This document shows positions 57 to 46,459 of a stretch of 64,000 bases of DNA, piece after piece. A program made the translations under genes and the position numbers. This stretch comes from Yuukianura sp. NJ FZ-2021 (Eukaryota): assembly GCA_046563655.1 (NCBI GenBank), contig CM102283.1:8060001-8124000 (forward strand). The letters run 5' to 3'. Positions within the stretch are counted from its first letter, which is position 1. Each line of letters begins with the position of its first letter. Below the pieces are notes generated by a model. That model was not told the DNA's origin. It made no database searches and saw only the letters and a program-made list of their open reading frames with translations.

Positions 57-519
57 ATATTAGAAGCTGTTTTAAATTACAAAAGTTTCCCGCCTTTATG
101 ATTTGTGTCATTGTGTCTCAATATGAATGTTCTGCTTTTGGCGGAATTTATGCACTAAAATTTATTCTACTACGCGCCGTATTCAAATATCAAACCAAAT
201 GTCCCCACCCTAAATTTCACCATCTTGATCTTATTGGTCCATTACGTTAATTGACAACTTAACTACTAATTAATTAATTAAAAACTCCTCCATCTCGTTG
301 TGGCTGGAATCTGCTTGTCGTTGTTGATTCAACTCTTATCATCTGTTCTGGAATCCGGATATTGCTATACACGGTAAACAGCTGACTAAAAGATAATCCT
401 TTGCAATTTCAATCCGCACTTTAAATGAAGAGAATTTAATTTTGAATTTATTAGTTTCACCAACTACGATTGGACGCTAGTTGAAACCTGTTCTCTACTC
501 GGATTGCTACTGTGGAACC

Positions 520-1032
520 ATGAAATTCCTCCATTTTGTTTTGATTCTGGTCATCTTCGTAACAGGATTTCAGAATTCAGTATCAGCTGATTCATTAGTA
601 AATGTTGACCGTGTTGCTCGGCAAGCTCCAGCTACCGAAGCTGCAGTGGAACCAAAACCTGCAGCAGTTCCTCAAGCCAAGAAGATGTCTTGGGAGAAAG
701 CGGTACACTTGAGTTTTTTTTTTATTTTCAACGTTTGAAAGTCGTAATCCTTGCTCTTTTCTGTATCGTAGAAACAGCAATACAACTTGGCAGATCCTGT
801 GAATGAAGACTACCCAGTAATTTTCAATATGATTTTATTCATCGCTGTTGCATTAGTTCTCGCACTGATAGCCATTTCCGGTAAGCATAGAACATTTGCA
901 ATTATTATAAATTAACCCCAAACGTTTACTGGATGCTTTTTCCTCATAGTTTCAATCGCTACAATGGATCCAGGAAGGGATTCTCTCATTTATAGAGTAA
1001 CATCAGGACAAAAGGCCAAGAAGGACAACTAA
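520..1032 (+). CDS. ATP6AP2: Miniature ATP6AP2/(pro)renin-receptor-like V-ATPase accessory protein, about 124 aa, 3 exons
   Basis: Exons 520-702, 772-880 and 950-1032 with phase-consistent GT-AG introns. Signal peptide MKFLHFVLILVIFVTG and an RVAR furin-like site, then YNLADPVNEDYPVIFNMILFIAVALVLALIAISVSIATMDPGRDSLIYRVTSGQKAKKDN. This matches the Renin_r C-terminus (YNLA..Y.V.FN..L-TM-MDPG.DS.IYR) with a KKxx tail. Confidence 0.85.
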
Positions 1033-1504: not shown

Positions 1505-4500
1505 TTAGTGAGAGTAGGCAAAGTTGGGGCCTTGGTAGTTGAAGGAATAGGCTGCTGGATGGGCAGCGGTGTAAGTCGTTTTAACAACAGGGGTAGCAAC
1601 ATGTTTCACTGCTGGAACAGCCACTGGAACACGGGCAACTGCTGGTACGTGATGTTTGAACAGAGCTGGTTGTTGAACAATTTTACGGTGAATCTTGGTT
1701 GCAGGTTCCTGGACTTCAATTTCCTGGACAGTTTCAATTGGTCGAGTCACTACAATACGTCTCGTGGTGATTCGTTCTCCTCCCTGAAGTTGTGGATCTC
1801 CAAGAGCATCGGCTACCTAAACTCACCAAGTTTCGTAAAATCTCAACAATCTTTACCAAATTTTTCGAAAATTTCCGATTTCTAAAATTTTTCTGATGTT
1901 ACCTGCAGGACTGAAGCAGAATCGGCTGGGGATCCATCTTTGTTCAGGATTTCCGTGACAGTGCCGCCCTTGGCAGTGAGCAGTTCCAAAAGTCGGTTTT
2001 GGAGAGCAATGGGCATGTCAGGGGTGATGGTCAGTCCTTGTCCGTTGTCTTGAGGTCCTTGTGGAGCCGTTGGTGGTGCTGGTTGTTGCGGCTGATCTTG
2101 TGGAGCTGGAGCTGGAGCCGGTTGCTCTGGAATCGGCTGTGGTTCGGCTGGAGTCGGAATGTCATCTCGGCCAGTTGCTTCTACAACTTCCGTATCAGCA
2201 TCAACAGCTTGACGGAGTTGTGGGCGTGGTTGCGGTTGCGGCTGGGGTGCTGGAGGTGCTGGAGCAGCACTTCTTGGGGCAGCCGCTTGTGGTCCTGTGG
2301 GTGGTTGTGCTTCAGGGATTGGTGCTGGGGCGGCACTTCGAGCTCCGAAGCCTCCATTAAGAATTTGGGCGTTTCCTCCATCTAGAATTCGTCGGCTGGC
2401 TCCATATCGCACAACAGGCGCAACATGTTGGAATTTGGTTGCAGTCAACACAGCAGGTCCCTGATACAAATCAAAACGTGCGTGATTTACTTTACTCCTG
2501 GGAATTAATTGAATTAATTAGGTTAAACTATGAAATGCAATTATTTTTTTGATTTGCAGTGCACTTCACCTTGAAGCCCTACCCTGTTGCTCCAATTAGC
2601 TACTGGGTGTGGCCGATTAGAAAGGTTAGTGATATCCCATAAATCATAAAACGCCTCTAACTAATTCCTACCTAGATTACCGTAAAACTTCTAATACTAG
2701 GCGACGATCTGCAACAACCTCCAGTTCAGCAATAAACCGATTCGGGTGAGTTTAACTCAGGCCGAGAAAGAAACGTCTGGGGTAAACGTTGAAATTTTGA
2801 AAAACGCCCAGACGTTTTGCGTTTACGAGAAGTTTTACGGTAATTCGTGGTATGATGAGATTTCAAAGATAACGTTAACGTTGAGATGATTTATAAATTT
2901 GTTGAGCAATTTTTAATCTAATTGGGGTTAAGTGGCTGAGGGGAAGCTTGTTTGATTGGATTTTCGGCTACGTTTGAATAATTGCTGACTGGCAACGAAA
3001 AAAATCAGCTCAATGGCTGAGGGCGTAGCAATTGAAAGTTGTCAATCGACTTTTTAGTAAGCTTTTCTTTTCTTACAACTAAAGAGTAGTCCAAATGAAA
3101 TCAAATCAAACTGTCAATTACTTTTTGAACAACAACCTTGTCCCCGTCACTAACTTTTTCACAAGGTCAGAGCAAGTTTGACGTTTAGCCGATTTGTTTG
3201 TTCTCCTCAATCAAGAAAACGAGAGCATTAATTATGAAATTCCAATTTCAATCAACTCTTGTTTTTGTGTGCGTTTAGATGACACTGCAATTTGGATTCT
3301 AAGGACGCAACTAACATGATGACGAAGGTTTGCCTCAAGGGTTGTAAACAACAAAATAGTTTTTTCTTCAACAGGTTAGGCAATAACTCAAACTCTTTAA
3401 ATTTGGTTAAAAACTTAGCAAAACTTGGTTCACCGTGCCTTCCTACGGCACGGTGTGTGTAATCAAATGGGATTGGAGGAATTTTGGAGGAGAAAATTGT
3501 TTGAAGCGAAAACAGGACTTATTGCCTAACCTGTTAAAGGAAAGTTAAATTCCGTTGCTATAGGAACCTTGGTTTACCTGCTGCTCTTTGGCAATTGGTT
3601 GGCTCAATTCCAAAGTGGCTGAACCGGCCGGACGGACGATGACACGGTGCTCAATGTCGTAAAATTCCTTGCGCAGAGCGGGACGTCGAACTTTGACTTT
3701 TCGGGTTGACACTGCTGGTTGGTGGACATCAACTTCTTGCTGAGTGTAGCCTTGTGAGTAGGCCAACTTCGTCACTGGCACATCAGCCACTCCGGGAACT
3801 TTAGTGAGGACGGGCGTGGCTGCATAACCGATCTGAAAAAAATAAGGTCAACAACATGTTCACTGCGACCTTCATTTTCACACTTCTCGTTTTGATACTA
3901 GTAATGCAATTTACACATTTTCAATAGGAAAACGACAACGTTTTGGGTTTTGTGAACACGCTAAGTCATTTTCGTAATGCAAACGTTATTTTTTGCAACT
4001 TCAACGTTTTTTTTTCAGTCACCTGCTGATGTGCTGCATATGTTGGAGCAGCATAGTAATACGGAAACTAGTTGTTTGGATATAAAATTTTTCAGAATTT
4101 TACATTTTACATAATCTTACATAATTTTGCATTAAAAGGCCTATATGCATTTTGACCAGGAAAAATACTTACCTGATGATGCTTCTGGACGAGTGGTGCG
4201 ACTGGAGCTACTGGAACAGCGGCGACTGGAGCTGGACCGTATTCGACAGCTCTGTGATACTGGAGTGGTGCTGGTGCTGGGGCAGCAGCAAGTACTTGTG
4301 GTTGGTGGGCATAAGCAAATTGTGCTGGCTGTGCTGGAAGTGGAGCTGGAGCTGCTGAGTATGCGTACTGCGGCTGTTCAACTGGTTGCGGCTGCTCTTG
4401 TGCGATTGGTTGAGGTTCGGCAGCAGCAAGCGGTTGCGGGCCTTCGATTGGCTGTTGTTGAGGTTGGGGAAATGATTCCGGTTGTTGCTGAAACTAAACG

Positions 4501-8000: not shown

Positions 8001-8104
8001 TTCACATTCACTCATCATGTATATTTCTCCCTTGGTTGTCTAATCCACTAGTAAATGTTATGACGATTCTTCATAGATCATTGATCCGAAGTAGAAAAAT
8101 GTAT

Positions 8105-11100
8105 TTATGAGAGTGGCTTGTCATCTTCTACCGGAGAAGCAACTGGAGTCGGCGTTCCATTCGGTTTCCCTCCAGCATCACCTTGACCTCCCGTAGCCTC
8201 ACGCAACGCTTCATCAAAACTCTGCACCGAGCCTGACCGCGAACCGCCCACCTTCGTCTGAAAAATTCAAAAAAGCGGTTTAGAACATTCCAAATTCGTT
8301 TCCAAAAACTAATTGAATTTGTGTATAAAAGCGTGTGTGTCGTTGAACGTCATTGCTCAATTCAATTCCAAGTCACAGCATGCGCCAACCGATCGTACTC
8401 TCCATTTCAATTGAAATTCGAAAACGCCCGCCCTTTTAGGCTTTTACTAAATAATTGAACAAATAACAAAAGCTTATGGACTCCTGGATCCCAGGCAGCA
8501 TTAAGCACCAGCATCACGCAGCGACATGACAGACACAGAACAATTCCGTAATTGAATCAAGCTCGATACATGAACTGCCTAACTCAAAACTGAAAACCGA
8601 TCTAGCGAAGCTTGAAGCTGAGCGGCTGGTTCCATACTAATGAGATCCCTCTAGAAATACTGGATATACTGGCAGTATTGGATAAACTTTATGAAGCCAT
8701 TTTACCATGTACTAAGAAAGTCGTGCATCGTCAGCAGTAAACTACTGTACTAAAGTGCAGTAATAGAAAGGAAACACGTTTCCTGAAACTCCCTTGTTTC
8801 TTTCCAGGTCTGAGCGACGTTTTTACAAATGACGGGACGCGGGAGTTTTTAAAATCCGTTGAACCGATATCCGTTCCTTACATTTACCTTGACGCTGGAA
8901 ACGGCTGACGAAACTCTCTCTTCCATGGATCGAAACGAATCCGTATTTTTGAGTGCACCAATTTTTTGACTCATCGCAGACCCGATTCCGCCCAGAAGCG
9001 ACGTCGTCTTCTCCGCAGTAGCTTTGATAGCAGACTCAGTCTTCTGGTACCTGCAAATCAAATCAAACAAAACAAACAATTAAATTTTATTAAATTATTA
9101 AATTAAATTATTTAGTTACAGTTAGCAGAATGTTCTTAGCAACCGGTACACTCAAAATCCGACATTCATTCGGTCTGAACCGATTGATTTCGTTCGAAAT
9201 CGTTACATACGCCATATCGTTGAGCTGCACTTGATCCATCACACTCCCTGCATGTCACATTGATCGAAATACATAAAAGAAGTACAAGTAAAGCCATCGG
9301 TCCAAGCTGTCACTTTGGACGGAAATGGACACATAGCCTCTGACACACCACATGTCACCATACTATAGACGTCGATCTCATCAAAACGAAGAGTGGCACT
9401 TTAACCCCCATTGCTTTCAGAAAAAGCACTATGGCCACTGCCGCTACTCAAGTGAATCCTAATGACCTCACGCCTCGACTGTTTCACCTAATGAACAAAT
9501 ATCCCCAATTCCAGTCATATCGAAGCTTTCCCAGTACTCCAGTACTCGTCCAGTCTTTCAGCACTCTCTCCAGTACTCCACAACACCCGCAAATACTCCA
9601 GACCTCCCTCCAGTACTCCAGAACTACGCTTTCCCAATTTTTTTCAACCAACCAATCAAACAGGACAAAAAAAAATGATTGAAACCTGCTTTCCAAAAGT
9701 GAAACTGAAACTACCGACTGCTTTTTGAGCACAGAAGGCCAAATTTTAGTTTTAGTGGCACAACTCATCCGAATGATTTGCAGCTTCCCCGTAAGTGCAA
9801 AAACTGTTTGGCAGTCTTAAAAGCATCCACAAATTCCAGATCCGTTCCAAATCCACATCACTTTTACTTTGGATATTATCAAATATGCAAAAAGTCCACA
9901 GCATGCAGGAGCACTTTAGATTGAATTTGATGTCTTCTACAAAGTAAAACCACACTAAAGAGAATCCCCTGGCGCATCATTATTCAACCAAAGGACAGAG
10001 TTACTCAGGAACTCATTAACTCTTATGTCAAAGTCTCCTTTCAGCCTTTGTTTGCCGACAATATCATCAAGAACTCCTGAATTGTAAAACAAACTTCTCC
10101 GGGAAAAGCATAAAGTAAAGAAACACAAAGTGGAGGAGACTCCAGAAATAATTTTGGGAGAAAGAAAACAAAGCAAAAAAGAAAAAAAACGAAAGAAAGA
10201 AAATTAAACTTTCTGGGAAGCATAGCAAGGTAATTTTTCTTTATATAAAAAGTTTTTTAAAGTTTTTTTTCCTAATGAAAGTCAAAATTTTTTGTAAATC
10301 TTTCACCTTCTGTTTAACTTTTCATACAGTGCTGCCACATTGTTTAAAACTTCAGCTTCTCAATTTCGTAACTTTTTCGAAAAAAAAGATTCTCATAAGA
10401 TTTTCAACTTTAATTACACGTATTAAAAGTTCTAACTTTAATTACATGTACTAAGATCATCTAAAACACATCTCATCCTTCATCTTCAAAGTTTTTGACA
10501 TCCCAAAAAAAAATTAGGCCTCAAATTTTGAAATTTTCCTCCAAAAATCAATATCCATAAACACAACTAAATTTCCTTTGATATACAAAATTATCATAAA
10601 GTAACCGCCTAACTTTGTTTGCTGGCCACAAGCCACCAGGAGAAAGTTTTCCAAAAAGTTTGTTTACACCACAAAAGTTTGTTTCATTTTCAAGGTTATG
10701 TTCAAATAGAAACATTTCACGTCAAATCCTTTCACATAACATAACTCCGCAGCAGAAAAATGAATGATGGATCGTCATAACTAAAACACACGTCGACATA
10801 ATATCGACTTTCTCTTTTTCCAAAATTCCAAACAGTTGAGTCAAAAACACTAACACATTTGCAGAGGCCACGGGCTTAACAACCACAAAACATGAAAGCA
10901 CAACTTTTTTCCAAACTAAAATAAACTTTTATCAAACTTTCATAATTTTGTTTTCTCTAGTTAGAGTAAAAAATGTAAACTCATGAAGTGTAGTACAAGA
11001 CTCGAAAGTTGAAAGTTAGAAGTAGTAATTATAACGCTAATCCAATTTTACTCAAAACCAAGAGAAAAGAGCCGCTTTCTCTCTTAATCTCTCTAAGCTC

Positions 11101-14100
11101 CCACCTTTCATCATTATAACCTCACTGTTCGCTTCATACCAAAAATAAAACAACTAAAGATCAGTTTTAAATGTGAAACTTCAAACAGAAAAGCCTAAGC
11201 AAAACCTTTCCAAAATTTCGAAATCCCACAAAATTACTAATTTTTTAATCAAAGTCACAAGAGTTCAACAACTTTGTGTGTTTTTGATTTTCCCCGAAAC
11301 GCAGTTTGACATTTCCAAAATTCGATTTTTGTGATCTCGACTCAGGAAATGAAAGAAATAAACCAATTTACGGAAATCAATGAAATCCAAATTCGTATAA
11401 ATTTCAAACCTTTTGCCGACAAAGGAAAATGTCATAACTTTTTGGTTTCATATACAAAAACACAAGTCAAATTACTCAAAGAATTGACTAAAAAAATTAA
11501 TAAACAAATATGTCCATACTTGTCCATAATTTCTTGTCAACAAAAATTCGTTCTAAGCACGAACACGATGCTCCAAAACTATTCTATTATTCACAATTTT
11601 CTGTTCACTACATAAGCAAACTTTTAACCAAAAAAAAAACGAACCTAAACAACACAACCATGTTACAAAAATGCCAATTTTTGCAATTTTTTAACAAAAA
11701 TTTTAACACAAAAGTCCTGATGCGGGCGTTCACTCCAAAATGAGAGCCCCGCCCTCGTCTAATGCATCTGCACTCAGCAATAAAATCTCTCAAAAAATTT
11801 TTCCAAAAGTAAAAGTATAATATGAGTTTTCGAAAATTCCTTACACGTCCTTTGCTACGTCCATTTTCGTTTTTCAAAATTTCACTTTAGATGAAGAGAA
11901 ATGTATTGTCGTAGTTAAGGATTTTTTCCCAAAATTTCCTCTTTTCACAACTTCCAAACGAATTACACCACTTGAATTTTTTCTTCCGATTGAATTTGTC
12001 GAATACTCTCAACCTTTTTGTTTGTTATTTACTGTACTTGACAAGCCTAAAGTAAATCCACTCCTGGATTGCGTCAGCAGTAAGATGTGCTTCGTTAGGT
12101 TTTGAATGTAGAAGGAAATGAGTCCTGTTAAAAGGAGCAATTAAAGTGCTACTGTAAGTAGTGCAGTCTGATCTTGTGCTGGAGAGTAGTAGGAAGTGAT
12201 GAAATAAAAATGAAGTTGAGATCAGAGCTTCCAGAACAGTGCAGAAGAATGGTAGTTGCCGCGGAGAAAGGTTCCTATCGACTAAAAACACATTCCCCCT
12301 CCCTTTCTCCTGATGAACACCAAAGTAAAAGGGAAAAAACACAGAGAAAGCAGAACACTTTCTCTCCAGCTCCCAAAACTCATAGTTACTCCCTCCGTCC
12401 CTTGTGTACGAGTTCTTGATGGGGCTTTGCCTAAGCCCAATTCCAGTAGTAGTGCTGAACTTTTTCCCTACTCCCACATTACATACCTACACAACATATC
12501 TAATCCTATTCACATGCAAACTACATATAACAAATGTACATGTACGTACTACGTATATTATACACATTCAGGTACATATGTACATAGTACATTCACCTAA
12601 ATACATAATATTCACATACATGCATATCAAACATTGACGTACATACTACATAGTCGTAGTTGCACAATGGTAGCATGCATTCACATATGTACTACATTCA
12701 TAGTAGTACATACAGAGCACGTTCACCATACATAAATGTTATGTTATACATGTAATCTACTATAGCACACTCACATACATGCTATGTTATACACGTTATG
12801 TAAGTGCACATGCATAACTTAACAGAAGGAAAATTGAGATAGAAGCACTTAGAATTGAACTGGAGAAAGCTAATGCCAAATCCATTCCAAAACATCTCTA
12901 TCTGCAAACTTGTACGGAATCTATTATTCAACTTTCTCCAGCATCAACCACACAATCAATCACAATTTAGTGAAAGTCGTCCACGCTGTGCTTTCTCCAT
13001 TCAGAATTTAGATTTCAAATCCAACACTCCCATTCTAATTATATTTGTTATTTACATAAAAGCCAATCTCCCAAAAAAGGAAATGCACTTCAATTGATTC
13101 ATTTTCTCTCCCAAAGTTAATTCCACGGATAAGATTTCATGAAAATAGAAATTTAATCTCTGCGAATCGAATGAACAGGAAGAGGAGGTTTTAATAGGAT
13201 TTCTTGGCTCCATTTTCCAATAAGCACAAGATGAAGCTCCTTTACAAACGAATTCAACCAAACAGCGGAGAGAAGAGAAGCTGAAAATCAATTCTATTCT
13301 GAGTGCTAAATCACTAAAGCCTTTTGCTTTCTCCTTTTGTCCTTAAGCAAAAGGAAGTTAGTATGTAGGAGGGTCTTTGCCAAATCCCAATCTACATTAT
13401 AACACATTAGTTTCCCCTAATATCATCTTTACAAAAACGAAAAAAGAAAGTTGGCTCCGCGTGCCAAAAAAAAAGTTCAGAGACGGAGTCGGATAATAAT
13501 GACCATTTTAGTGACATGTAACCAAAGAAAGTTTTAAAAAAACGAACAAAAAATAAGATAGAAAACGAAGAAAAAAGAGACTTTTCTTTTTTCCAATTTG
13601 GAACAAAGTTCAAAATGGAGCGTTTCTCTGTCAAAAAAGACAAGAAAACTTAGTGCCACTCCTTTTTTTAAGTACAAAAATTTTTTTGTAACTTCAGAGA
13701 TCATGTTCTAGAATGTTGTAAAACTTGATGAAGTGACATTTTATGACTCATCTCATTCTGTCGACCGGACAGTGACAGAACAGACTGGTAACCTCAAAAC
13801 TTGAAATCAAAAACTTGCATTTTCACACCAAATCCGAAATTTTCGAAATCCCAAACACTCCCGCATTACTTTTCCATTTCCTGATCACCCTAACTTTCAC
13901 TTTTCCAAAAACCATAGCTAAAAAATCCTCATTTGTCTGAAACTGGTGCGGAATAAGCTCGATACGGAAAGCTTTCATTTCTATTCATGCCAAAAGATGA
14001 TAGTGGAAAAGCGTTTTCATAAATCTCCTCAAAAGATGAATAAAAGTACAAATTGCAAAAGAGAAAGTCCATTTCCTTGCTTTCCCTTACAAGATTTCTG

Positions 14101-17100
14101 GACGGCTATTTCAAAAAAACCGAAAAAAAGAAGAAGTGGTGCAGAAAGAAGATGTACATGAAACTTTTATTGTATGGAAACTCCCCATACACATGATGAC
14201 GTGCCCAAGTTGGAGACGCAGAGGACGAGGTCGGGCGGTAGTGGTGGGCTGCTGGAGAAGAAATTTCCAGCTTCTGGATCAACCGAAAGCGTTGCTTCTG
14301 AAAAACGAACTCTGCTTTCTTCTCAAAAACGTCAATTCTGCGTCTGCGCCGTTCACACCAAGTATCGATTCTCGTTGGATTCACACATACGGAAAGCCCA
14401 GGAAAAACCTTAAGTCGCACCACTTTCTCCCCAAATTCCTTCGTTTTCCTTAAAACTAAACTTTTCCTACAAAACTGAACCCAGACACAGAGATATTTCA
14501 TCTGCCCAATTCCCTTTTCTACTCAATTCTACTGCGTTGAAATTCTCACCATGAACAAAAGTCATCTTCACTGAATCAAAAAACGAAAACTTTTTGGAAA
14601 ACCCAACTTCTAAGTAAACTTCGCCAGCTGAGTAAAGAATTGAAACAGTCTGTGCCTCTGCATGACCTCCACAGTCCATCTTCTTCCAAAACAAACCGAT
14701 TTCTCTCCTAAACCAAACAATCACAAAAACCAGAAACAATCAGTTACAAACTCACAAAAGAAAATTTCTCACGGAAAGACTGAAATAAACGGAAATGCGC
14801 CTCAAACTGTAATATCTTCGTCTTTTCCTTCCTATACACTCCTGCCTGCTTCTCATACAGATTGAACAATCTTTTGATCTGCTTCAGATCGAACCTGAAA
14901 AGAGTTCAAATGTTCAAAAAAAATGTCGTCAAAGAAGAAAACTTTGGAATTCATTTAAAAAAACGTCTTCCCAAAACGCCATTCGATTCTCATCTATCAT
15001 CATTTCAAAGTTTCCAGCAAGACAGGATAAAGCTCAAACGTTTCTGCTTTTGACAAGCACTTTGGCCGCAAGGAATAAAAAGAAAGTCGTCGCTTCTGAG
15101 AAGGAATTTTGCAAAATTCCTTCGTTTGAAGTTCAACTTGTGGAACCTACTGAACAAAAAAAAACATAACAAGTAGAAATGAAATGAATAATATGAATTC
15201 CTTTTCACGAGAAATCCAGGAGAAAATGGAAGAAACCAAGCCAAATCGACTTCCTCTCTCCACTTTCTACGTCCATGGACCAAATAATGACAGAGAAAGT
15301 TCAGAATTTGGAACACACACTAAAACTTCCTTTTCACTCCATTCCCACTCAGAAATTCGGTGACTCAAACTCAAATTCTCGTCTGGAGAAGTCTGAGTCT
15401 GGAAAATAAAAGTTCTAGACGAAGAAATCTCCCGCTTCCAGAAAGGAATTTGAACTTAAGTCCTCATTCTCCTTGTAACTGCATTGGAAAATGGCTCTTG
15501 AGAGTCTTTTGTCCACCATTTTCAATCTCTCTAATCGTCATCATCATCGCTCAACTTAAGCTCAATTCCTATTTTCAAATTAACAAAGCCCTCTTCTGAC
15601 ACGGACAGTTCAAGGTCGTGCGCTTCTTTTAGTAAAATAGAAGTGCTAAACACTTTATGCCCTCAAAGGCTCTCCGCCACTTTCAAAAACTGGCGGGAGA
15701 CTTTTTTCCAAGTACTAAGTTAAGAAACGTTCTATCAAAGTACTTTTGGTAAGAAACACTCCATCAAAGTTACTTTTGACAAGAGCAGCTCAAGATCAAC
15801 AAAACAATCGAGTTTGCACTCCAGCAGAACACTGCTTGTCCATAAAATCTTTGACATTTTGGACATCTTAAACAATCTGTCATTCCTTGACACCAAAAAT
15901 CTAAAAAACCACTTGAACAAAACGACAACAAACAAATACAAAATGTAAGATGACAAAGTAAAATAAATTAAAATCATAAGCAAATATTTTAAGAAGCATA
16001 AAAAGCTACTTACAATGGAGCTGATGTCACGGCTGTTCCAATTTCTGAAAAAGTTTCCTCAATTTTGTGTACTCTAATAAATTCCAATCCCGACACCAGC
16101 AAAATAAAGGCAACAGTTTTACAAATGAAGAAGGCGCGAAAAACGTTGTTCAAAAATCACAGCAAAACCAAGAAGGAACCATAAAAAAAATAAAAACAAA
16201 ATAAATTAAAAATGAAGCTGCGATAATTGTCGTCGATTAATTGAGGAAACACATCGTTATCCAATTTCCGCACAAGATAATTGATCCCGCGGATAAATGG
16301 ATACACGAAGGAGCTATCGATCTAATTTATGGCCGTTTGGTTAGCGTGACTCGGATAACGTGGTGTCCGGCACGTATTAAATTTTTAGTTAACTTACGCA
16401 GTCGATTCTCGGACGTTTTTGATTCCTTGGCCCATATCACTCGTAAATGATCCCCATGCGGTCACTCCTAGTTTCCGTTTGAGCTCGTGTGCTCTTCTCG
16501 TCTTGGAGGTGAGCACCTAAAAATCAGAAAATCAAAATTTGAGTTCAATTTATGAAAAAAATTAACTTTTACTGTGTTTCCTTTTGTTTTTTTTATGTTA
16601 ACTGACCTGCTTCAAGGTTTGAATTTCTTCTTCAACTTGGTTAAGTTCGGCTTGCCACTCTTGTCTCGCGGCTTCCAGCTCCTCAGCGGACATGCCAATT
16701 TCAATCGGCGACCCAATGTCATTGAATGAACTAGATTGACTCATGCCTCCGAAAGCTTGCGGTTCTAAAATGTCAAAAAAAACACCAATTAGTATGAAAT
16801 TTACAAAATTTTAACCTAATTTATAAAACTAGAAGAAGTTGGTCCACCTTGCCCCTCCTGTCCTAACGTCAAAAACTTTTTGAAATGAGATGCACTGACA
16901 CGAGCCGTATATGGCTTGTCAAAATTGTGATACATCACACGCATATTGCGTAACTTTCGTTTTCTCTTTCCAACAAGGTCCTTAACACTATCAGCGATTT
17001 TTTTAGCCGCCGATTTAGCATCACCCAACTTTGTCCTGACTTGACATGCTGCTGACGCTGACCCCTCATCTCCCGATCCATTGCCTAATTCTAGCTCAAC

Positions 17101-20273: not shown

Positions 20274-22477
20274 ATGTCTTTGTATAAGAACTCTGGACCA
20301 GTAATCAAGCGCGTCGTTGGAGGAATAGCGGATACTTATCTTCAGCTGAAGAAACTTGATTTCCGACCAGTCAAGAGAGTTTCATTCAAGTTCGATCCGT
20401 TTTATCCAAACATAAGTCAGTTCCGGGATTTAGTCTTCTATCTGTCTGCAACCAAGTACCGAGAAACGAATCCGAAGTGCGTGTTCAAAACCGACATTGT
20501 CTCAGATCTGTCTGACCCAGAACTCGTCTGTAAATTGGGTAAGCGAAATCTCAAATTCATGGCTTCAATTCAATTAACTTACACAAAAACAATGTAGCAA
20601 GTTTGTTGTCGATTCAAAATGTATCTCCAGGCATATCTCTCTCCCGTCCCCGAGTCTCTCTAATCTCCACGATATCTTAACTTCGTTGTTATTAGTAACT
20701 GAAACTTTAATTTGTTCAAACACTGATTGTTACACTTGATTGATAGACTGAATACGTGGCCAGACCTGACCCAAGGAAAGGCAAACGACGAAGTTAAGAT
20801 GCCGAACTCTTTGGAGAAATCCGCACAGGATAAGAAAGACTTGGAACGGTTCTCAAAGTTTTTTGCCCATAAAGTGGTCCAAGTGATTGTACAGTCAAGA
20901 CTAGGAGAGAAGATTCGGTGCAACTCGAGATCAACGAGTTACTCTAACGATTGGTTCAACTTGTGCATTGAAGACAATCCAGAAGTCCTGAAACATACGA
21001 AGGCCGCACTTGGTACGAATTCCCTTCCGTCTCCTCCGCTCTTGGTCGAGATCAGTTTGAAACCAGCAGACTCCGATCATCTACCAATTGAGCTTTGGAA
21101 TTTGCATTTCGATGAGCTCGAAGTGGAAAACGTCCGGATTTTGTTTGCAGTGTACAACCGAATGTCGTTGTTACTGAAATCGCTTATTTCAGTGTCCCGT
21201 GTTGTGCCAGCCTACAAGTACAGTAGAATGAAGGGCAGTGACTACCAGATTCTTTACAATGTCATGTCCGGTGACCCAGACTATCATCGGCTTGGAAGGG
21301 AATGCAAAATCATCAAGTTGGGCTCCGTTGGAACTCCATTTGGAACTATTCGGCTCGAGTTTGGGTACAGGACGAAGATGGCTCTGAGTATCGAATCTCG
21401 TCCGATGAATCCGGTGCTTATGAAGTCCAATCACTACTCTGTTGATGACTCCGTCAATGGCCCAGACTCCCAAGATCCGTTCAAACCAATACCATTGCCT
21501 AAGATTCCAGCATTTTCGGATCCACTTACTCTGCCATCAGATGAACTTGATCCACTGGATATTCCTTTTGGAAACCTTCTACGACGGTCGTCAATTCATG
21601 CCAAAAGTCCACGGGATGAATCACCCCAGTTGGTTATTGATGAACAAGAAGTTTCTTCGTCAACAAGTGACAGCGATCCAAATACTTCTGGAGATGGTGC
21701 TGACAAGTATCAGTTTGTGACCATTTCAAAGCCTATCCCATTTGCTCCAGCACCCGATCCAGCATCGGATCCAGCCAGTTTCTTCTCGACTCTTCAAAAT
21801 CCACCGCCGTTGGACAGCTTCAACGCCCTGAGACAAACTCCGACGATTGAAATTGAGAAGCAAATGGAAGCCTTTGAAGAAAACCTAACCGTCTTTGATG
21901 ACTTTGTGAACAGCCTATGCTCCAGTTTAGAAGACTAAACAAGCAAAAGTGACAACGACGACTCGTCACGGGCCACTCGAGACATGATGGAGAGAGATGT
22001 GACTGGAGATAGCAGATCAAATGCATAAATAACGAAAACTAACTTGTGAAAACTAAAGTTTTCGGAATAACCAAATTTACTACTTATTTTTATGATCAGA
22101 TTCAATTGATCCCGCTTTGACCGCTTGTGTGCTAATCATAAACTCAAAGAATGATAAAAATTGCAAATGTCTATTGTCTATTAGAGTGATACATCTTTCT
22201 GGAATTGGGATATGATATTAAATAAATTGTCAACACGTTGAACTTTTCAAAAAATGGCGGTGAAAATTTTTGAGTTTTAGTCAATAATCGATTTGGAATT
22301 TCAATCACTTTGTTTTTTCTTTTTTCAGAAAACGGAACTCAGCTTGTCTTCAAAGCGAAGAATCTAACGACACTTGAAATTTTGGAGCGATTTAACAAAA
22401 TTGTGCTGCCGCTACTGCCACCGGAACCTAGTGAAGGAGCCGTCATTCCCAAGACGAAGAGTCAGAAAAAACGTTAA
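20274..22477 (+). CDS. mRpL53: 39S mitochondrial ribosomal protein L53, about 137 aa, 2 exons
   Basis: Exon 1 20274-20538 (LKKLDFRPVKRVSFKFDPF...ETNPKCVFKTDIVSDLSDP; donor G|GTAAG). Exon 2 22329-22477 (ENGTQLVFKAKNLTTLEILERFN). The phase-1 junction gives a complete L53-type protein. Confidence 0.88.
20799..21938 (+). CDS. Atg13: Autophagy-related protein 13, intronless, 379 aa, nested in the mRpL53 intron
   Basis: N-terminal HORMA domain (DLERFSKFFAHKVVQVIVQSRLG...DWFNL...YNRMSLLLKSLISVSRVVPAYKYSR), a disordered middle, a LIR-like YQFVTI and the C-terminal FDDFVNSL Atg1/ULK-binding motif. AATAAA at 22221. Confidence 0.93.
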   Translation: MPNSLEKSAQDKKDLERFSKFFAHKVVQVIVQSRLGEKIRCNSRSTSYSNDWFNLCIEDNPEVLKHTKAALGTNSLPSPPLLVEISLKPADSDHLPIELWNLHFDELEVENVRILFAVYNRMSLLLKSLISVSRVVPAYKYSRMKGSDYQILYNVMSGDPDYHRLGRECKIIKLGSVGTPFGTIRLEFGYRTKMALSIESRPMNPVLMKSNHYSVDDSVNGPDSQDPFKPIPLPKIPAFSDPLTLPSDELDPLDIPFGNLLRRSSIHAKSPRDESPQLVIDEQEVSSSTSDSDPNTSGDGADKYQFVTISKPIPFAPAPDPASDPASFFSTLQNPPPLDSFNALRQTPTIEIEKQMEAFEENLTVFDDFVNSLCSSLED

Positions 22478-23181: not shown

Positions 23182-26100
23182 TCAGCAGTCTTCGAAACAG
23201 TTTTTGACGTTCCTGCCTCTGAATGGTTTGGGTAAAAACAGTTTATTCTTGACCCTTAGACCAAGGTCAAATATACAACCCTGAAATCCAGTATGGAGGG
23301 GCAGGTCATGCGGGAGCCCTTCAAATCTATGACTTTCGTAACCCCCAACGTACAACTCCTCTTCAACGTTGAGGTTATACATAGGTCCAGGGCTCCTTCC
23401 AGAAACGTTTCTCATTCCATCGACTTTGATCCAGGCATGTCTTCCAGATCGTCCGAAGTAAATCGTATGGATTTGCAGTCTGGAGTCGATTTTACTTGGA
23501 GTGACGATTCTGCGAGACCCTGAGCCTAAATTCCACGTCGCAGCGACTAGTCCCTGAAGAAAGCTTAGTGAAAAGAAGTCTTCTAGAGAAGATGAATCTA
23601 GGTAGGGCTTAGAAGATGATGAAATTGCTTTAGTAGTTAGTGGACTTTCAATTTGTCCAGCAACTTGTCCAGCTGAGTGGACATTGGCAGTGACCCGGGT
23701 AGTTATGGCAGTGGGATTTCCAATGTAGAGGAGTAGAGCTATTTGGGATAAGTTGGCAGTGACGAAATGGAATTTCATTTGGAACCAGTCCGAAAGATGT
23801 GGTAGTCCATAGTAGGAAATGTAGGAAGAGTAGTCTACTGTAGGATGGAACGATGGTTTGGTTATGTTAATTCTGGAGGAACATAGTTGTCCAGTGAAAC
23901 CCAAGGCGCAGAGACATGTCACGTTGACGTCTGATGAACGGTTTAACGGTAGGGTTGGACTACAAGTGGCTCCATTTTGACATGGATTGGACATACACAC
24001 TTTGATTTGACATCGGAGCCCTTCGTATCTGAAATTTTCAAAAAAAAAAGTTGTGTTACCCGCATATCTTTAGAAAGATTTTTTTTTTCAATTTTACCCG
24101 GGTGGGCAAACACATTCCCAAAATGGCGGGTTACTTGACGGGATACACTTGGAATTCCCTGAACACGGATTGGTTACACAGGAAAACGTTTTGCACTCCG
24201 TAATTTCCTGTCCATCAGTAGCATCGTCGTACATTTCCATTTGGTCGTTGTTCACCTAGAAAAGAGTGGGAGAAGGTAAACAATTTAAAAGTTACCGCGG
24301 TTAAAACTTGGGGTAAGATGATAATTATTACCGTAATGTTGGACAAACACCCCCGAAATCCGGACAGAAACGAAATCATGTCGTTTCCAGCGTCATCACT
24401 TGACCTCAACCTAGGCTCCACCCCGCCAACATAAATCGCTTCATATTGCGGGAACGTTTGATTGTCAACCAGCTGTTCACCGCTCATCACAAAAGCCGAG
24501 CCGTTGAGACTCAGGCGAGCTAAGCAGTGAAGTTGACTATTGTTTCCATTTTCGGTCATCCTAAGGTCAAGGTCAACAGTGAAGTTATAGCCATTGTTGA
24601 CCTTGGTTCGGGTTTCAACGAATTCCATTGACTGAGCTCCACAAGAGAAGTGTAGGACGAGGTGCCCGTTTTGAATGAACACAAGAGCATAACTTCTCCC
24701 TGTTCTGGACGAAGTTTCGTTTGAAATTCCGCCAGTTTGAACCGAACTTGTGTACAAAACGACTCCGTCTGGAACGACGGTAGCCATTTTGAGTGAAACG
24801 TCGACGGTATTTTTGGACTTGGCGGGAACTTTGTACTTGAGATAAGAATTTCCGCGGAGAGCGGGAACTACAACTTTTTCTGCTTCGAGTTCACACAGCT
24901 TCCCGCGGAATTTAAACGGGCATAGGCAGATTGGGCCGAGAGAGGACACAATACATTTAGCGTTGTTCTGGCAGTAGTTGTTGCAGGGGTCAGGAGAGGT
25001 TGACGAATCGTTGTAGCTTGTACCTGGAGTTGTTGAGGGTGGCGATGACCTCGGGGTGATGATTCCATCATCTGTAGAAGGTGAGGTCAACATGTCGCTG
25101 CTGGTTGTGGTCCAGCTTGTTTCGTTTGTTGGTAAAGTGCCGTTAAATTCTGGACTTTCGGTTGACATCTCCTGGGTGGTCATACTGGTGCCGCCCTCTG
25201 CAGTTTCTGTTCCAATTGTACCGTTTGTTGCAGTGTCCGTCGATGTTTGGGTCGTTGACCAATCAGGTTCTGTCGAAGTATCTGAAAACGGAGTAGTGCT
25301 AGCTGTACTCTCCGGTGTGCTGATTGGCGAAACTGGGAGTGGCGTTGGCTCTTTAGCTGTAGTCGATGTCGTCATTTCTGACACGCTTGTGGTATTGTCA
25401 GCTGATTCTGTGAAATTCGTTGATGGTTCGGTACTTCCTGGTGTTTCGGCTGTCGGAGTTTCGGTTTCGGTTGTAGATTGTTCCGAAGTTCCGGACTCAG
25501 TAGATGGCGTCATACCTTCTGACGAAGACGGTGTCGTTTCAGTTGTTGCGTTTGTAGCAAAGTCTGTTGGTGACATTTCAGTTGTAACTTCTGGAGTCGT
25601 TTCGTTTACCTCCGGGGTAGTACCAGAAGTTGTTGGAGATGTTTCGGATTCCGTTTCATTCTCAGATGCAGATGTCGGTGTTGGCGAAGGTAAAGTACTT
25701 TCCGATTCCTCAGTACTTGCTGTCGTGCCGGTCGTTTCTCCGGTAGGCTCCGTAGTCTCTGTATAGTTTTCCATTGGTGTTGTGAAATCCGTGTCCCACG
25801 GTCCGGTAACGGTAGCTGACGGTTCTGGTTCGACTGTTGCTGAAGGCGTGAAACTAATTGTTGCATAGTCGGGTGAAGATGACAGGGTACTGCTTATTTC
25901 TACTTCTGAGGAGACCCAGTCATCAGACATTGTGGCTGTTGGGAATACCGTGTCGAACTCCGTTTGGGACGGCGTGACAGTATCGAAGTCTTCGGACGGT
26001 TCTGGAGTAAAGCTCCAATCAGCTGTAGATGGACTTAGTGTAGCCGTGGGCTCAATAGATGGCGATTCGATGACGGACGTTGTCATGGATGGCGACGGTG

Positions 26101-29100
26101 ACATAGCGGTAGGTGATACTTCATCGGAAAGAGTCTCTGTAGGTTCAATAGTGCTAGTTTCAAAATCTAAGCTCGATGACATTGTTGGAGTTGGGGTTAT
26201 GTCGACCTGGTCGGTAGCTGAAGGGCTCTCGGAGACCACTGGAGTAGAAGTGAGCCCTTCAGTCTGGTCGACAGCAGTTGGAGGAGGCGGGGAAGAAAAT
26301 TCGGAATCGGATTCATCTGGGGTGGGGGTTGGTGTTATGGTGATGGTAGGCGTAGGGTATACTTTGGTGATTGTACTTGTCCAGTATGGCGGATATGTTT
26401 GACTTATAGTGTCGTTGACCTCGGGTGATGATGTAGTGCTGGGCAGTTGGCAGTCGGGGTCAGTGGAGTTGACCTCGCATTGGCAAAGGTCACCGTAGAA
26501 ATTCGGTGGGCAACTGCAGTTGAATCCACCAACGCCATCAATACATGTGCCGCCATTGAAGCACCTTTAAAAAAAAGATGAAATGATAAGAGACAATTTG
26601 AAAAAAAAATGTTGAAATTATTTTTGAAAATGTTGAAACAATTTTCTAAAACAGAAGTTCATGTTAGGATCGCATGACACTTACTAATTGAGTTCTCAAC
26701 GATAAACGATTTGTTAGGTTAGTTTTCTCTGTATTTTTTTCTATGTACACGCAATTTTGAACTAAACCGCTAATTTATTGATACCATTTTCAATTTATTT
26801 TTGAAACTCACTTCGGACCGGGTTCACATTCGTTGTATCTCTCCTCACATAACTTCCCGTGGTAATCTAATACAAAAGTATCGAAATACAATAATTTACA
26901 ATCTTTCAACATGCAATTATTTTTTTTTCAAATTGAGTTGGAAATTGATTTCTCGTTTTTGAAATCAAAAGTTCACGTCTTACCTGGAACGCAGTAGCAT
27001 CTCGGTTTTCCATTTTCTTCCAGACAAAATCCGCCATTTTGACAAGGATTTACTGGACAAATTTTCATTTTTTGTTCACACATTTTACCGGTGTAGGAAA
27101 ACGGACAAGCGCACTCGAAGTCATTGATACGGTCAACACAGATTCCACCTGAAAATGAAAATCACTGTTTTAAAACCTGTTTACTCGAAAAAATGAAAAT
27201 TGAGGAAAAAAAAGTGCAAAATGAAAAGTGGTGAAATACAATACACCCCTTGGATTTTTGAAACTTTTTTTATGTAGTAGTCATTTTTAATAGTCATTTT
27301 TAAAAAATGACTATTTATTTACCATTTTGACACGGAGCTGAACTGCACTCGTCAAAATTGGTTTGACAAAATTGGCCAACCCACCCTTCTGCACAAACAC
27401 AATGAAACTTGTCCCCCTGGCCATCTACACAGTGACCCCCATTTTGACACAGAGTGGAGTTACACACGGAAACGTCATCGTCACAAAGCTCTCCTAATGA
27501 CAAAAAAAAGTACCGTGCAATTATTTCAATTTTTATACAAAAGCTTTTACAATGAGGCGACATTTGAATTTTAATTGAGTAAAGTTAAATTGTGGAAATT
27601 TTAGTTAAAAAGTTAACTTTTTAGTTGTTTTTCGTACCCGTGTATCCCTTGGGACATGCGCAGTAGAATCCGCTTCCAGTTTTGCCGGGCTCAATTAACT
27701 TCGGGTCGAAGCTACACGTTGCGTTGTTTGCGCAGGGTTTGAAACTGCGACATTCCGACAGGTCATACTCACAAAACGATCCTGGAAGTTTACAAAAACA
27801 CAAAATTTTGAAGTTCCTAATTTGAAAATTTGAAAATGTCGAGAAATAAAAACAGTTAGCTTAGCTTTACCTTCAAAATACAGTAACAGGATAATACAAA
27901 ATACTGCCGAAATTCTATTGTGCCTAAATTTCATTCTTTTGCCTAGTTAACAGGAACTTGGAACCAGTCGATAAAATTTATCGGCTGTGTTTGAACGATT
28001 GCGTTACATTTCAAAAAACTTGGAATATATTTCTCGAAATTTCAATTTCGATTTCAAAATTTCTAACTTTACTGAGCCGTTCACTCCGAAATTTTTTGAA
28101 AAGTTGGTGGAGGGATGATATGATTTGAACTGACGGCAAGAGAAAGCAGGAAGGGGGACGAAGAAAGCTTTTTGGTTTGAACTGGAAAAATGATTTTTGG
28201 TAAGTCGATATTTCCCCTGCTGGATTCTAGTAACCGTCAGTTCCAATGCCAAAACCATACTAAAAAAAAGCTAACAGTCACCACCTAACCTAACATACAC
28301 CGTTACATATCCAGATTGAAATTTTCTGGTTACAGCGGAAAAAGGAAACCGTGACTGACACACGTCTGTTGTGATACAACGCTAAAACAAAATACACAAA
28401 AGCAAGGAATCAATTGTCATTGTTACAAAAGCTTGTGTCGTAGGTCTACCCTAGTGGAAGTCATTGACTTTGTCTAAACTTTGACATCATTCCAGAAAAT
28501 TTTGGAAATTTCGGACGTCAGACTTGTCAAAAATTTATATCCGACCTGTCTGGAACGGGCTATCGCAAACCTACCATCAACGTCTACTTTTTAGAATTTA
28601 GAATGAGAGTCCATTCACCTTTATGTGTCCAAACGGACAGTACATTTTTTGAAACTGGTCAATTAGCATTGATTGGATGAGAATTGTATTGATCAAACAC
28701 GGGGATTCATGTTCACAAACAGTTTAAAAAGCTGTGTTTGAACACTGACACATTGATGTTAGGCACCAACCAACACTGTCTAATACTGTGAATTGTGGGT
28801 GTGGAAGTCTTAATTAGCTCTGTCAGAATTTAATTCCTTGATTTAAATTGCTCCAATTCCCATGAATTCAAGACCATAAAAGTTAGTTGAAGGGAGAGGA
28901 AGAATCATAGCCATGTTTACCCAATAGGGAAAACAATGGGAATTCAGAATAAAAAAAAACGATTCTTTAGTGTGAACATTTTTTTTAATGTTGGTATTGC
29001 ACAATTGAGTTGTACAAAAAATATAGAATTCAAGGGTGTTTTGGGATTCGACTTGTTTTGGAAAGTTGTTGGAGTACTAACTAAGTTTGAAATCAGTACT

Positions 29101-39200: not shown

Positions 39201-42200
39201 TGAGAATAGTTTGGCTTCGATGGTTCCTTACAAACCAAAAACATGTTCGGATTCCTCGTTTTACAGGTGAAATTTTGCATTTCAAGAAAAAAAATTGAAG
39301 TAAAGATTTTATATCAACTGTAACATCACAAATCAAAATTTTCACGATTCTTCCGTCATTTTATGATTAAAATCTTTCAAATCTTCCGTTAGCTGAGAGC
39401 ATAAATCCTCTAAGTGCTTTTGTTTTATCGCATAAACGAAAAAGGAAGTGAAAAATTTCCATTTTATTTACTCAACGGATTTTCCTTTTTGAACAATTAC
39501 GAATTGTGCAATTTATTTACATTTTTGTGCCTCTATTCTCCTGTCAAGACTCTTTTCAAATGATGTAATCTTTTATGTCAACAATTGCGTTTTCGTGTAC
39601 ACACAAAAATTTTAAGAAAATTACAGAGGCGTGTCCAATTTTTTCCAAATTTACTTTCTAACTAATTTCAATTTGTTTATAACTTTTGTTATTTCAAGTG
39701 AAAATGTATTTTTGAGAGTCAACTGCGCCGACGCATAGTTTATTCTGTTTGACACACCTTAGAAAAAATTCATCTTTAAAGTTATGTCTACCGGCACATG
39801 CGCATAATCTATGACGCATGTCTGCACCTTACAGCATATAATTCATTAAACTGATGCTGAAAAGCCAACTTTGTGCAGGTTACAAAAAAAAACGAATTAA
39901 TTAAAATAACTAAATGTTATTGTTGTTGATACAAAGGATCTGCGCTTGCACAGGTCAAAATGTTTTTCATTTTAATTGCAAATCCAAACTGCTTGATCAT
40001 AGTTACGGTTAATTGCGGTTACATTTTAAATGACTTTGTTTACAGTCATTAACTGCGTTGGTTTTGTAAAGATTTGGTCCTGTGCAGGCGCAAAGTACAC
40101 AAGGAAAAATAGAAAGCGAAACTCAATGCCAAGGTAGTTTTTAGTGTGGGCGGGGGATTTTGAATTCATTTAAGTGAAAAGTAAACCAAAACAGTTGCAT
40201 TTAAAGTCAAAAATACTCTTTTCGTAACAAAATTGGTAAAATAAAGTATGTTTTTTATTTAAATATCATAGTGGGCGAAAATTTAAAATATTTTGTCATT
40301 ACAAAGGAGTGTCACCATACACATCTTAATCAAAATTATAGCATCTGACACCCCATTTTTGGATTAAAAAGTTTTTAGAAAGCTAAAAACAATGAAAAGG
40401 AGAAGACAACAATTCCTTTCTTTTCAAAATTATTGTCAAGCGGGGTACATTAGATCGCTTTTTTGTTGTTGTATGTTGAGGTATGCTGTAGGGCAAGGTT
40501 CTTTGACAACGAAAAATGAATTTTCTTTAACAGGTTGAGTACTAACACGCTTGTTGACAAAAAAATGAAAAAATAAAACGAAAATTAGTACCAATCCAAA
40601 CACTTGGTACCAATTCGTATGCATTTAAAAAATTATGAGTAAGATACCATGAAATGAAAGACACACTCTTTTTTGCAAAATAAAAAAAACATGTGGTATT
40701 ACTCCACCTGTTAAAGAAAATCATTCAACAAACCTTGGCTGTAGGGTATGTTGTGTATTATAGGGTAGGTTGTACGTTGTTTTGTATGTTTAGGGTTGTT
40801 GCGTTGAACCATTTTAGAAGACACCATATAACTTCCCCAACACCCAAAACGAATTAAGATGCACTGTAAAATTGCAATAAAATCCAGTGAGTCAGCACTA
40901 AATTTCAAAAATGCACTTTCTATTCACCAACAACAACAACCGCTGTAGACAAAAAAGCCCTTGCGTGTAACATCCATTAAAAATTGCTACAAAACGTGAA
41001 ATTGAGACCATTTATAATGCAGGGCTCAATTAGCCAAGGGAACCACAAAGCTTAGCATATGCACTGATTCTGCAAAAATTCTCCGCCTTTGGTACTTTTT
41101 ATGGTTCTGCGTCAAATGAACTTTGTAAAAATAGCGTCGTGGATGGAGGCTTTGCTAAACCGCAAAGACGTGAACAAATCTTCACGACGTTAGTCAGATA
41201 TTGTTTAAAAAAAAATAGTTCGCGCGATTTTTCTTTTTCAATTTTTCAAATTCTGACATTTAAAAAAATTGTTTGAAAGTGTAAAATTATGGTGAATTTT
41301 GATGTGAACAATTTGAGTTTTGGCACGCTTTCAATTTTAAAAGTGTAAATAAAACATAATTTTCAACGCTCGTGCTCGTTTTGGTTTTGTCCGATTTCAG
41401 TTGGATTTTTGTTGGCGTGTATTGGCTGTATGGTGGTTGGTGAAAGCGGGATTTTCGAACCTAGCGACACCATTTCAAGAAGTGGACTCGGAGAGGTCAA
41501 GAGGTCACTCCGACGTCAGTCGATTGATGACGATGAAATTCATGAAGCTGAACTCGTCAAAGCCGTTGTCCAAAGTTTGTCTGAATGGAATCAAAGAAGA
41601 CTTCGACGCAAAAGAAATTCGCATAGGTAGATTTTCAAAAAAAAAACTACTTTAAACAAAAATCTCAAAAATTTCCGTTCATAATGTTTCAAAATTTTGC
41701 TTTTTTAGGGTGAAACGAGACGAAGAAGTAGTTTGTTATGGAGAACTGGGTTGTTTCCGGGACGAAGGTCCGTTTGACTACTTGGACATGCTGCCAAGTT
41801 CTCCAGAAGAAATTAGCACTCGATTTCTACTCTACACAAGAACGAATCGCCAAAATCCACAAATTTTTTCATATTTTAATTACACTACAATGTTCACTTC
41901 CAATTTCAATTCATCTGCACCTACCAAAGTTATCATTCATGGGTTTGGATCAACTTGTAACAGGATTTGGGCATCGGAAATGAGACTCACACTTTTAGCC
42001 GTGGTAAGTTCGAATTTTCACAAAAACTAACATTTCCCCGCCATTTTCAAAATTCACTTTTCAAAAAAGTTCCAGATCCCCATATTTCTCTGAATAGTAT
42101 GATCAAGGAACCACAATTAAGGCTCATATTCCGGCGGCAAAGTTCAAATCAAAAATCCACCACCAGCTTTGAAAGATGAAAATTTTTCAAAATTTCGTTT

Positions 42201-45200: not shown

Positions 45201-46459
45201 CTTATAACATTGTCAGCCCAAGTCCTCCAGGGCCCTGGTCAGGTCAACAGTGGCATCCAATTGCTCCATTCACTCCAGTAGAAACATTTCCACATATTGA
45301 AAGTACTGACAATATTACCGGGCATGGAGCACCAGCCAATCAGAGCCAAGAGTTTGTCATTCCTTCGTCGGAGTCACCAGTCGTCAAACTCCGAATTTGT
45401 CTTTTGAATGGCGGCAACCTTCAAAATGAAACCTCAACAGTCATTGCCAACGTGACCTTGAATAATATGACCTGTATCCATCCAGAAGAGGACCATCAAG
45501 GGTCCAGTGGGCCCTTGATGTCCAACAACGCTCTGGGGCAAATTGCATCATACCATCAAGAAGTACTCAGAGAAAATGAACTGTTTCACCATGGAAACGG
45601 CGTTGAAGTGGAGTCGTCGCATGACGAGGGGCCGTCCAGTACCGATTTGGCAATTCCGATGCCACCGGAATCCTTTTGGTCGGCAGTACACAACAATACT
45701 TTAGTAACTGCCAATGAAATGAAACACAGAGAACGAGAACCCACCGGAGACCCACCGATCCCACCACATTTGTCATACATTCTGCAGCAACTGGAGAGTC
45801 AAGGACTCGGACCGGGACCGAAAGTTCGGTTTGGAGACCGGATCAGTTCGGCCGGCCCTTCGTTCGGTACGAACTATTTAAGGGGTCTGCTAGGTCGAGA
45901 GGTTACGCCATCGAAGCTGGTCAGAAGACTGGTCCCTTCGTCAAGGGCCCTCAAGATGAGACCAGTGTCACTAACAGCAGCGCCGTCAAGTTCTGGAAAT
46001 GCTGGCGGTACTGGACCGATTCCAGCGTCTACCCCGGGGGGACATCGCAGACAATCGAAAATCCTTGACCTTGGATTCTCTCCTCTAGCTCCACCCAGTG
46101 ATGCTGGCCACGCCCACTTTAGTTCAAGAGTCCACGACATTCGGTGGCTCCATCCTCCACCTCTTAGGCCCCCGTATGCTGGTGCTGGCAGTAGTCCAAT
46201 CTTTTATGTTACCAAGAACCCACAACTGCCCAAAGGAAAAGGCTACTACCTCATTCCACATTTGGGAGACGGAAATAATAATAGCGGGAGACTCAAAATC
46301 CACCGATTGGTTCAAGCCCCACCACCACCGGCAACGGGAATTCCAAACGAAGTCCCACCGCCCCCACCGCAACTCCCACCTAAATCGTACTTTGAAGACT
46401 TTCGACAGCCCCACCACAACCCACCAAGGTGGACGCAGAAGCCACAGCCCGCCTACTAA
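36270..46459 (+). CDS. Pancreatic lipase-related protein with a PLAT domain and a long Pro/Ser-rich C-terminal extension
   Basis: Likely first exon 36270-36300 (MSAQPPFPKT, phase 1) joins 41401 to complete the signal peptide. Then RVKR^DEEVVCYGELGCF, IHGF, VDW, the GFSLG nucleophile elbow (43439-43453), RITGLDPAGP, DALFVDVIHS, GHVDFYPNGG.Q.GC and CNHRRA (triad His), PLAT exons, and a last exon of about 45029-46459. Confidence 0.88.

Follow-up and report, generated by a model that had tools for sequence, protein, structure and literature searches.

ATP6AP2 is an essential accessory protein of the V-ATPase, and M8.9 is the C-terminal fragment of mammalian ATP6AP2, cut by furin or S1P. The gene near the start of the window (the whole stretch of 64 kb of DNA that was analysed) raises the question whether an animal can encode an ATP6AP2 in which the signal peptide is followed almost directly by the membrane-anchored part, and whether such a protein would serve the V-ATPase. 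In the following we suggest that this is a real ATP6AP2 without a folded luminal ectodomain, and we weigh this against the other ways in which so short a gene could have arisen.

The gene has three exons (Table 1), and the splice model gives a product of 124 aa, in agreement with the length proposed in the initial annotation. When GT donors were combined with AG acceptors, 6 of the 16 combinations kept an open frame, and the combination 702/772/950 is the one that is gap-free across both junctions, that of intron 1 included, in the alignment with spliced homologues. An alternative acceptor of intron 1 at 778, 6 nt downstream, may cost two residues. The introns have a GC content of 32% vs 39–44% in the exons. 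As the three exons are in the same reading frame, tblastn reads straight through both introns. A tblastn search of the window with the spliced protein matched its own locus and no other, i.e. no second Renin_r copy was found in the window.

Table 1. Features of the gene (positions in the window) and proteins matched by its exon 2; module identity refers to the module of the window gene
Feature	Position	Strand	Remarks
In-frame TAG stop	478..480	+	14 codons 5' of start codon
Three-exon gene	520..1032	+	520-702 / 772-880 / 950-1032; product 124 aa
Exon 1	520..702	+	61 codons; start ATG 520-522; leader, RVAR, linker
Exon 1, signal-peptide-like part	520..588	+	sequence reading
Exon 1, RVAR	610..621	+	sequence reading
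Exon 1, Ala/Pro/Lys linker	622..702	+	sequence reading
Intron 1	703..771	+	69 nt, GT..AG; in-frame stops; 32% GC
Exon 2	772..880	+	juxtamembrane YNLADP..EDYP and most of TM helix (TM about 817-880)
Intron 2	881..949	+	69 nt, GT..AG, phase 1; in-frame TAA; 32% GC
Exon 3	950..1032	+	TM helix end 950-960; cytosolic tail with MDPGRDSLIYRVTS; KKDN 1018-1029; stop TAA 1030-1032
P0064, P0067, P0070			exon-ORF fragments, 37-52 aa; reach intron at intron 2 position and read on into 'G K/T..'
P0065			spliced short form, 107 aa, 5'-partial; module identity 82%
P0066			spliced short form, 141 aa; module identity 80%
P0068			spliced short form, 133 aa; module identity 77%
P0069			spliced short form, 120 aa; module identity 75%
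P0071			98-aa fragment of long-type protein, RKTRSIL; module identity 62%
P0072			long form, 284 aa, site RRTR; module identity 73%

The family identity of the C-terminal part is firm. The exons were scanned separately against Pfam, and both exceed the curated cut-off of the family Renin_r (PF07850; 27.8 bits): exon 2 with 44.4 bits (E 1.7e-11, profile positions 20–54 of 79) and exon 3 with 32.1 bits (E 1.2e-7, profile positions 57–79). Together these matches, which are collinear, cover positions 20–79 of the profile. Since both halves are collinear and each of them lies above the curated cut-off, the Renin_r identity of exons 2 and 3 is not due to chance, and the transmembrane and cytosolic Renin_r module ending in KKDN that had been read here initially is confirmed. 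In addition, exon 2 aligns to residues 292–324 of ATP6AP2 from pig, human, cattle, and rodents as contained in V-ATPase entries of the PDB (8 distinct sequences, E 8e-7 to 2e-3; E 8e-7 to 1e-4 for pig and human), and exon 3 aligns weakly to residues 328–348 of mammalian ATP6AP2 (E 0.1, PDB sequences). With exon 1 no Pfam match was obtained at E≤10, neither to RENR_N nor to any other family.

The layout of the short protein is that of a predicted type I membrane protein of 124 aa with a signal peptide and a single C-terminal transmembrane helix. Using 19-residue windows two hydrophobic segments are found, residues 1–23 and about 73–106. Hydropathy and the -3/-1 rule alone place the predicted signal cleavage at residue 23 with V-S-A at positions -3 to -1. 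A putative furin-type RxxR motif, RVAR, is present in the luminal juxtamembrane region at residues 31–34. The succession of signal peptide (by hydropathy) and RVAR thus stands as first described, but the motif lies 7 residues past the predicted cleavage and not about 10. Likewise, the linker that follows (residues 35–61) is Ala/Pro-rich as had been stated, but it is 27 aa long instead of about 30 and contains 4 Lys besides 8 Ala and 4 Pro. The extreme C-terminus KKDN has the form of a dibasic ER-retrieval motif. A cut at RVAR is predicted to leave a product of 90 aa and 9.8 kDa.

Relatives were found with a HMMER scan of the 36-aa exon 2 against 1.84 billion protein representatives, which returned 9 proteins at E≤1e-3 (Table 1): three exon-ORF fragments, four spliced short proteins, one fragment of a long-type protein, and one long form. 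The collection does not contain this organism's own proteome, as judged from the ATG13 exon of the window, whose best protein matches there are 82–88% identical (arthropods and others 34–39%). The four short proteins P0065, P0066, P0068, and P0069 share with the window gene the signal peptide, an RVxR motif, a Pro/Ala linker, the Renin_r module, and the ending (K/R)xKKDN. P0068 differs in keeping about 45 residues from the leader to RVVR, and P0066 does not end in DN but continues for 24 residues at the C-terminus. This extension, if real, would bury the KKxx motif; it could be an artefact of assembly or splicing. In each short homologue with a complete N-terminus there are exactly two hydrophobic segments, one N-terminal and the other the transmembrane helix; P0065 is partial. 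Going by sequence the short forms are a variant of a known family which recurs in relatives, and the four spliced short homologues of 107–141 aa with the same layout overturn the notion that the short form is unique to this locus. The initial annotation had itself named the occurrence of short forms among relatives as a finding that would count against uniqueness.

The comparison of the homologues also shows where the short forms correspond to the long ones. R-x-x-R occupies one alignment column in all 7 aligned sequences, including the long forms with RRTR and RKTR, and Q-A follows it in 5 of the 7. A position resembling 'D-S' about 8 residues upstream of R-x-x-R is shared, and the hydrophobic leader of the short forms stops just before it. 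The cytosolic tail is identical or nearly identical among the homologues. P0068 and the long form P0072 match from residue 47 and residue 200, respectively, onward, with 71% identity over 89 positions. P0069 aligns to mammalian ATP6AP2 at residues about 283–346 alone (E 7e-12) and wholly covers the 49-aa ATP6AP2 chain of one V-ATPase entry. The AlphaFold model of P0069 (mean pLDDT 68), computed with a 12-row alignment that includes the exons of the window, has a leader helix at residues 2–19, a transmembrane helix at 71–98 with a pLDDT of about 90, and one further helix in the tail; residues 21–48 have a pLDDT <50 and no folded luminal domain is present. The homology to ATP6AP2, the architecture, and the conservation of this architecture in the relatives are observed directly in these comparisons.

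Further searches gave no additional relatives. Word-index protein searches with exon 2 plus the intron tail among longer proteins (64 candidates) and with exon 1 among proteins of near length (2 candidates) had no significant match, and the Atlas look-up of exon 2 returned 42–45-aa clusters at 0.85–0.88, which were not usable. Prokaryotic genome contigs were scanned for contaminating relatives; 102 pattern matches were obtained and none was confirmed.

Full-length ATP6AP2 carries the luminal domain RENR_N at its N-terminus, and this architecture is not found at this locus within the 64-kb window. The 215-residue ectodomain of P0072 gave chance matches alone when compared by tblastn with the six frames of the 64-kb window (best E>4), and nothing among the open frames of positions 1–639 (best E 0.2). 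The P0072 protein itself matches RENR_N with E 2.7e-7 but with 31 bits, which is under the cut-off of 39.4. RENR_N (PF25294, about 256 profile positions) was absent from the 84 of 124 open reading frames of the window that were scanned against Pfam (stop-to-stop, ≥85 aa); the other 40 are mostly alternative frames over larger open reading frames. As exon 1 has no match to RENR_N and no ectodomain-like coding sequence was found in the 64-kb window, the earlier statement that the gene encodes little more than a precursor of the M8.9 fragment holds.

The same Pfam scan describes the rest of the window, with LamG/EGF, ATG13, MRP-L53, lipase, Sec1, carboxylesterase, MFS, and RING domains. The nearest neighbour, at 1505–2517 (-), is convergent; its two large open reading frames encode a protein rich in Pro, Ala, and Gln for which Pfam gave no match, and TTTATT, which reads AATAAA on the minus strand, is found by this gene near 1342. 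The region 8001–16000 has a strongly negative GC skew (-0.23 and -0.17 per 4 kb), a positive AT skew, and no Pfam-matching open reading frames; a 20-nt tandem repeat is located at 9531–9625. At 20274–21938 (+) an MRP-L53 exon (20274–20597) lies directly 5' of the 403-codon ATG13 exon, and 23182–27584 (-) holds a large gene that encodes numerous EGF and laminin-G domains in several long exons, among them a 783-codon open reading frame. Exons of a pancreatic-type lipase (41656–44327) and a 486-codon open reading frame without Pfam match (44999–46459) make up 41656–46459 (+). The stretches 49297–51001 (+), 53106–56467 (+), 59389–60603 (+), and 60807–61319 (-) contain a Sec1-family gene, a 411-codon open reading frame, a gene for a carboxylesterase, and one exon each for an MFS transporter and a RING finger; the 411-codon frame has no Pfam match and carries a short tandem repeat of the Ser/Glu/Asp type at 53523–53607. 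Rfam and tRNA scans of the window found nothing. With respect to taxonomy, a quick tree of 32 rows sets the lineage of the window apart from insects, Daphnia, chelicerates, and mites, and an Atlas look-up with a carboxylesterase exon led to clusters of Arthropoda/Rotifera; taken with the ATG13 matches this suggests a protostome that is probably arthropod-like.

Among the other explanations, the one that survives best is that the short gene is a paralogue, i.e. that the usual function is carried out by a full-length ATP6AP2 encoded elsewhere and the mini form is an additional copy with a specialised or regulatory role. The experiments in the mouse speak for it: in Atp6ap2-deleted fibroblasts the ectodomain together with the transmembrane part is reported to be 'indispensable' for V-ATPase biogenesis, and according to the same report the C-terminal fragment alone brought LysoTracker staining, i.e. 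acidification, back to just 38% (PMC3817224). In view of this partial rescue an ectodomain-less protein as the sole copy would be surprising. In addition, the long form P0072 and the short forms P0065, P0066, P0068, and P0069 occur in the same sequence group, and our genome search covered the 64-kb window. On the other hand, none of the long forms among the 9 matches is as near to the window gene as the short ones; the nearest spliced proteins are short and have a module identity of 80–82% vs 73% for P0072. The Renin_r modules of the short forms also score like that of the long form against Pfam (84–91 vs 85 bits; 84–102 bits over the six longer homologues), and the window is without a second copy. 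We therefore consider a paralogue unlikely, albeit the most serious of the competing explanations.

It is less probable still that the short form is an isoform with an alternative first exon, with ectodomain exons beyond the window that splice into an acceptor inside exon 1. The start codon lies 519 nt from the window start, and this is all of the upstream sequence visible. An acceptor-like TTTCAG/AAT was seen on inspection at 573/574, in phase 0 and inside the stretch coding for the signal peptide, and the long forms share the segment that runs from 'DS' to RxxR; these three points speak for such an isoform. However, the introns of this gene measure 69 nt, yet the 519 nt upstream contain no ectodomain-like coding sequence. 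As the TAG upstream closes the frame of ATG 520, an upstream coding exon would need to be spliced in downstream of position 480. ATG 520 as the probable start codon is supported by the alignment of exon 1 with P0066, which begins at Met1 and extends to residue 60 (28/60 identical, E 3e-9). Moreover, four independent short homologues have an N-terminal hydrophobic leader of their own; that the short forms represent their own 50% clusters is a weaker argument in the same direction. Finally, a decaying pseudogene remnant of a truncated ATP6AP2 is very improbable, for although the loss of about 200–250 aa could be a deletion accident, the frame, the start codon, both pairs of splice sites, and the stop codon are all intact, and at least 4 further sequence clusters show the same architecture, with a module identity of 73–82% and a conserved RxxR.

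How often the ectodomain was lost may be judged from a quick tree built on 7 sequences and 100 alignment columns, from which the three exon-ORF fragments were omitted as too short. The window gene groups with P0066 and P0065 (SH-aLRT 94), P0068, P0069, and the long P0072 form a basal polytomy, and P0071 is the distant row. This topology is compatible with the ectodomain having been lost once, after the divergence of the P0072 lineage. Several losses, or long and short forms side by side, may also have given rise to the present distribution; a position of the long P0072 nested among the short forms, which would be a sign of several losses, is neither supported nor rejected by the tree.

Taken together, we suggest that the gene is a real, lineage-conserved ATP6AP2 without a folded luminal ectodomain which serves the V-ATPase, and we put the probability of this reading at roughly 0.6. 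The ectodomain would have been lost, with the result that hardly anything separates the signal peptide from the juxta-cleavage segment. The signal peptide would direct insertion into the ER, and the C-terminal KKDN, as a KKxx retrieval signal, would cycle the protein back to the ER, where the V0 part of the V-ATPase is assembled. There the single transmembrane helix could be enclosed in the c-ring beside ATP6AP1 as in the mammalian structures. A role as V0 accessory subunit is suggested by the homology to the very segment that is modelled in the mammalian V-ATPase entries. A furin-type convertase may cut at RVAR, removing 11 N-terminal residues and leaving a 90-aa equivalent of M8.9. Localisation, cleavage, incorporation into the V-ATPase, and the role as the working ATP6AP2 of this organism are in this way predicted from the sequence and from the known systems.

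The role of the KKDN and RxxR motifs can be compared with work in Drosophila. There, the KKxx ER-retrieval motif of ATP6AP2 is reported to be needed for function, and a furin-site mutant with AxxA to give full rescue of viability; the same source gives the dibasic motif as KKxx in the fly and KxRxx in vertebrates, and the fly protein ends in KKDN as read from a printed primer (PMC5716037). In the window gene the RxxR motif is retained with almost nothing to shed, which raises the question of its purpose.

With an ectodomain-less form that several related animals have conserved, a natural comparison with the long forms is at hand, and the mini gene provides a defined construct with which rescue can be tested across species. 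If it were the sole copy, it would show the minimal part that is sufficient for the pump. We propose only tentatively, as slightly less probable than its opposite, that the ectodomain has been lost wholly from the genome in this animal lineage and that the V-ATPase uses a mini-subunit of about 100 aa which is encoded as such and bears the RxxR motif. In that case what the ectodomain does for V0 assembly in mouse and human would not be universal, its proposed role as a Wnt/PCP adaptor would be missing or assumed by another protein in these animals, and RxxR would have a function different from ectodomain shedding. The initial annotation had seen in this gene a natural test of whether the ectodomain is needed, and such a test presupposes that the genome holds no full-length copy.

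With respect to known systems, one close comparison is full-length ATP6AP2 itself, as in the mammalian chains of 345–351 aa of V-ATPase structures and in Drosophila VhaM8.9. The window gene shares with it the Renin_r module, an RxxR motif before the transmembrane helix, and a dibasic C-terminus. In contrast, the full-length protein has the RENR_N ectodomain, whereas the window gene has none and merely 7 residues between the predicted signal cleavage and RxxR. In the human protein the ectodomain consists in silico of a folded part, 17–269, and a disordered part, 270–296 (PMC10073018), and the luminal domain carries human disease mutations, as stated in the fly study (PMC5716037). A review states that (P)RR orthologues, those of fly and worm among them, are of fairly constant length (PMC3354321), and in the literature searched no description of a natural ectodomain-less ATP6AP2 orthologue was found. 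The transmembrane helix of mammalian ATP6AP2 is reported to lie in the c-ring beside ATP6AP1, and likewise that of the plant homologue AP2 (At3g24160), a c-ring homologue of ATP6AP2 (10.1101/2022.05.01.490144, 10.64898/2026.07.01.735876). Plant AP2 is not taken here as an earlier example of a short form, as the accessible text of these sources states no length for it. An accessory protein of the c-ring does also exist without a large luminal domain: yeast Voa1p and plant AP1, as opposed to animal ATP6AP1/Ac45, are an example according to the accessible text of a preprint on the citrus V-ATPase. These proteins belong to a different family, and the likeness is by analogy with no homology claimed. 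The window gene also resembles mammalian M8.9, with which it shares the juxtamembrane stretch, the transmembrane helix, and the tail, and whose size is similar to the predicted 90 aa and 9.8 kDa. The difference is that M8.9 is released from a long precursor, whereas the form in the window is encoded directly behind a signal peptide.
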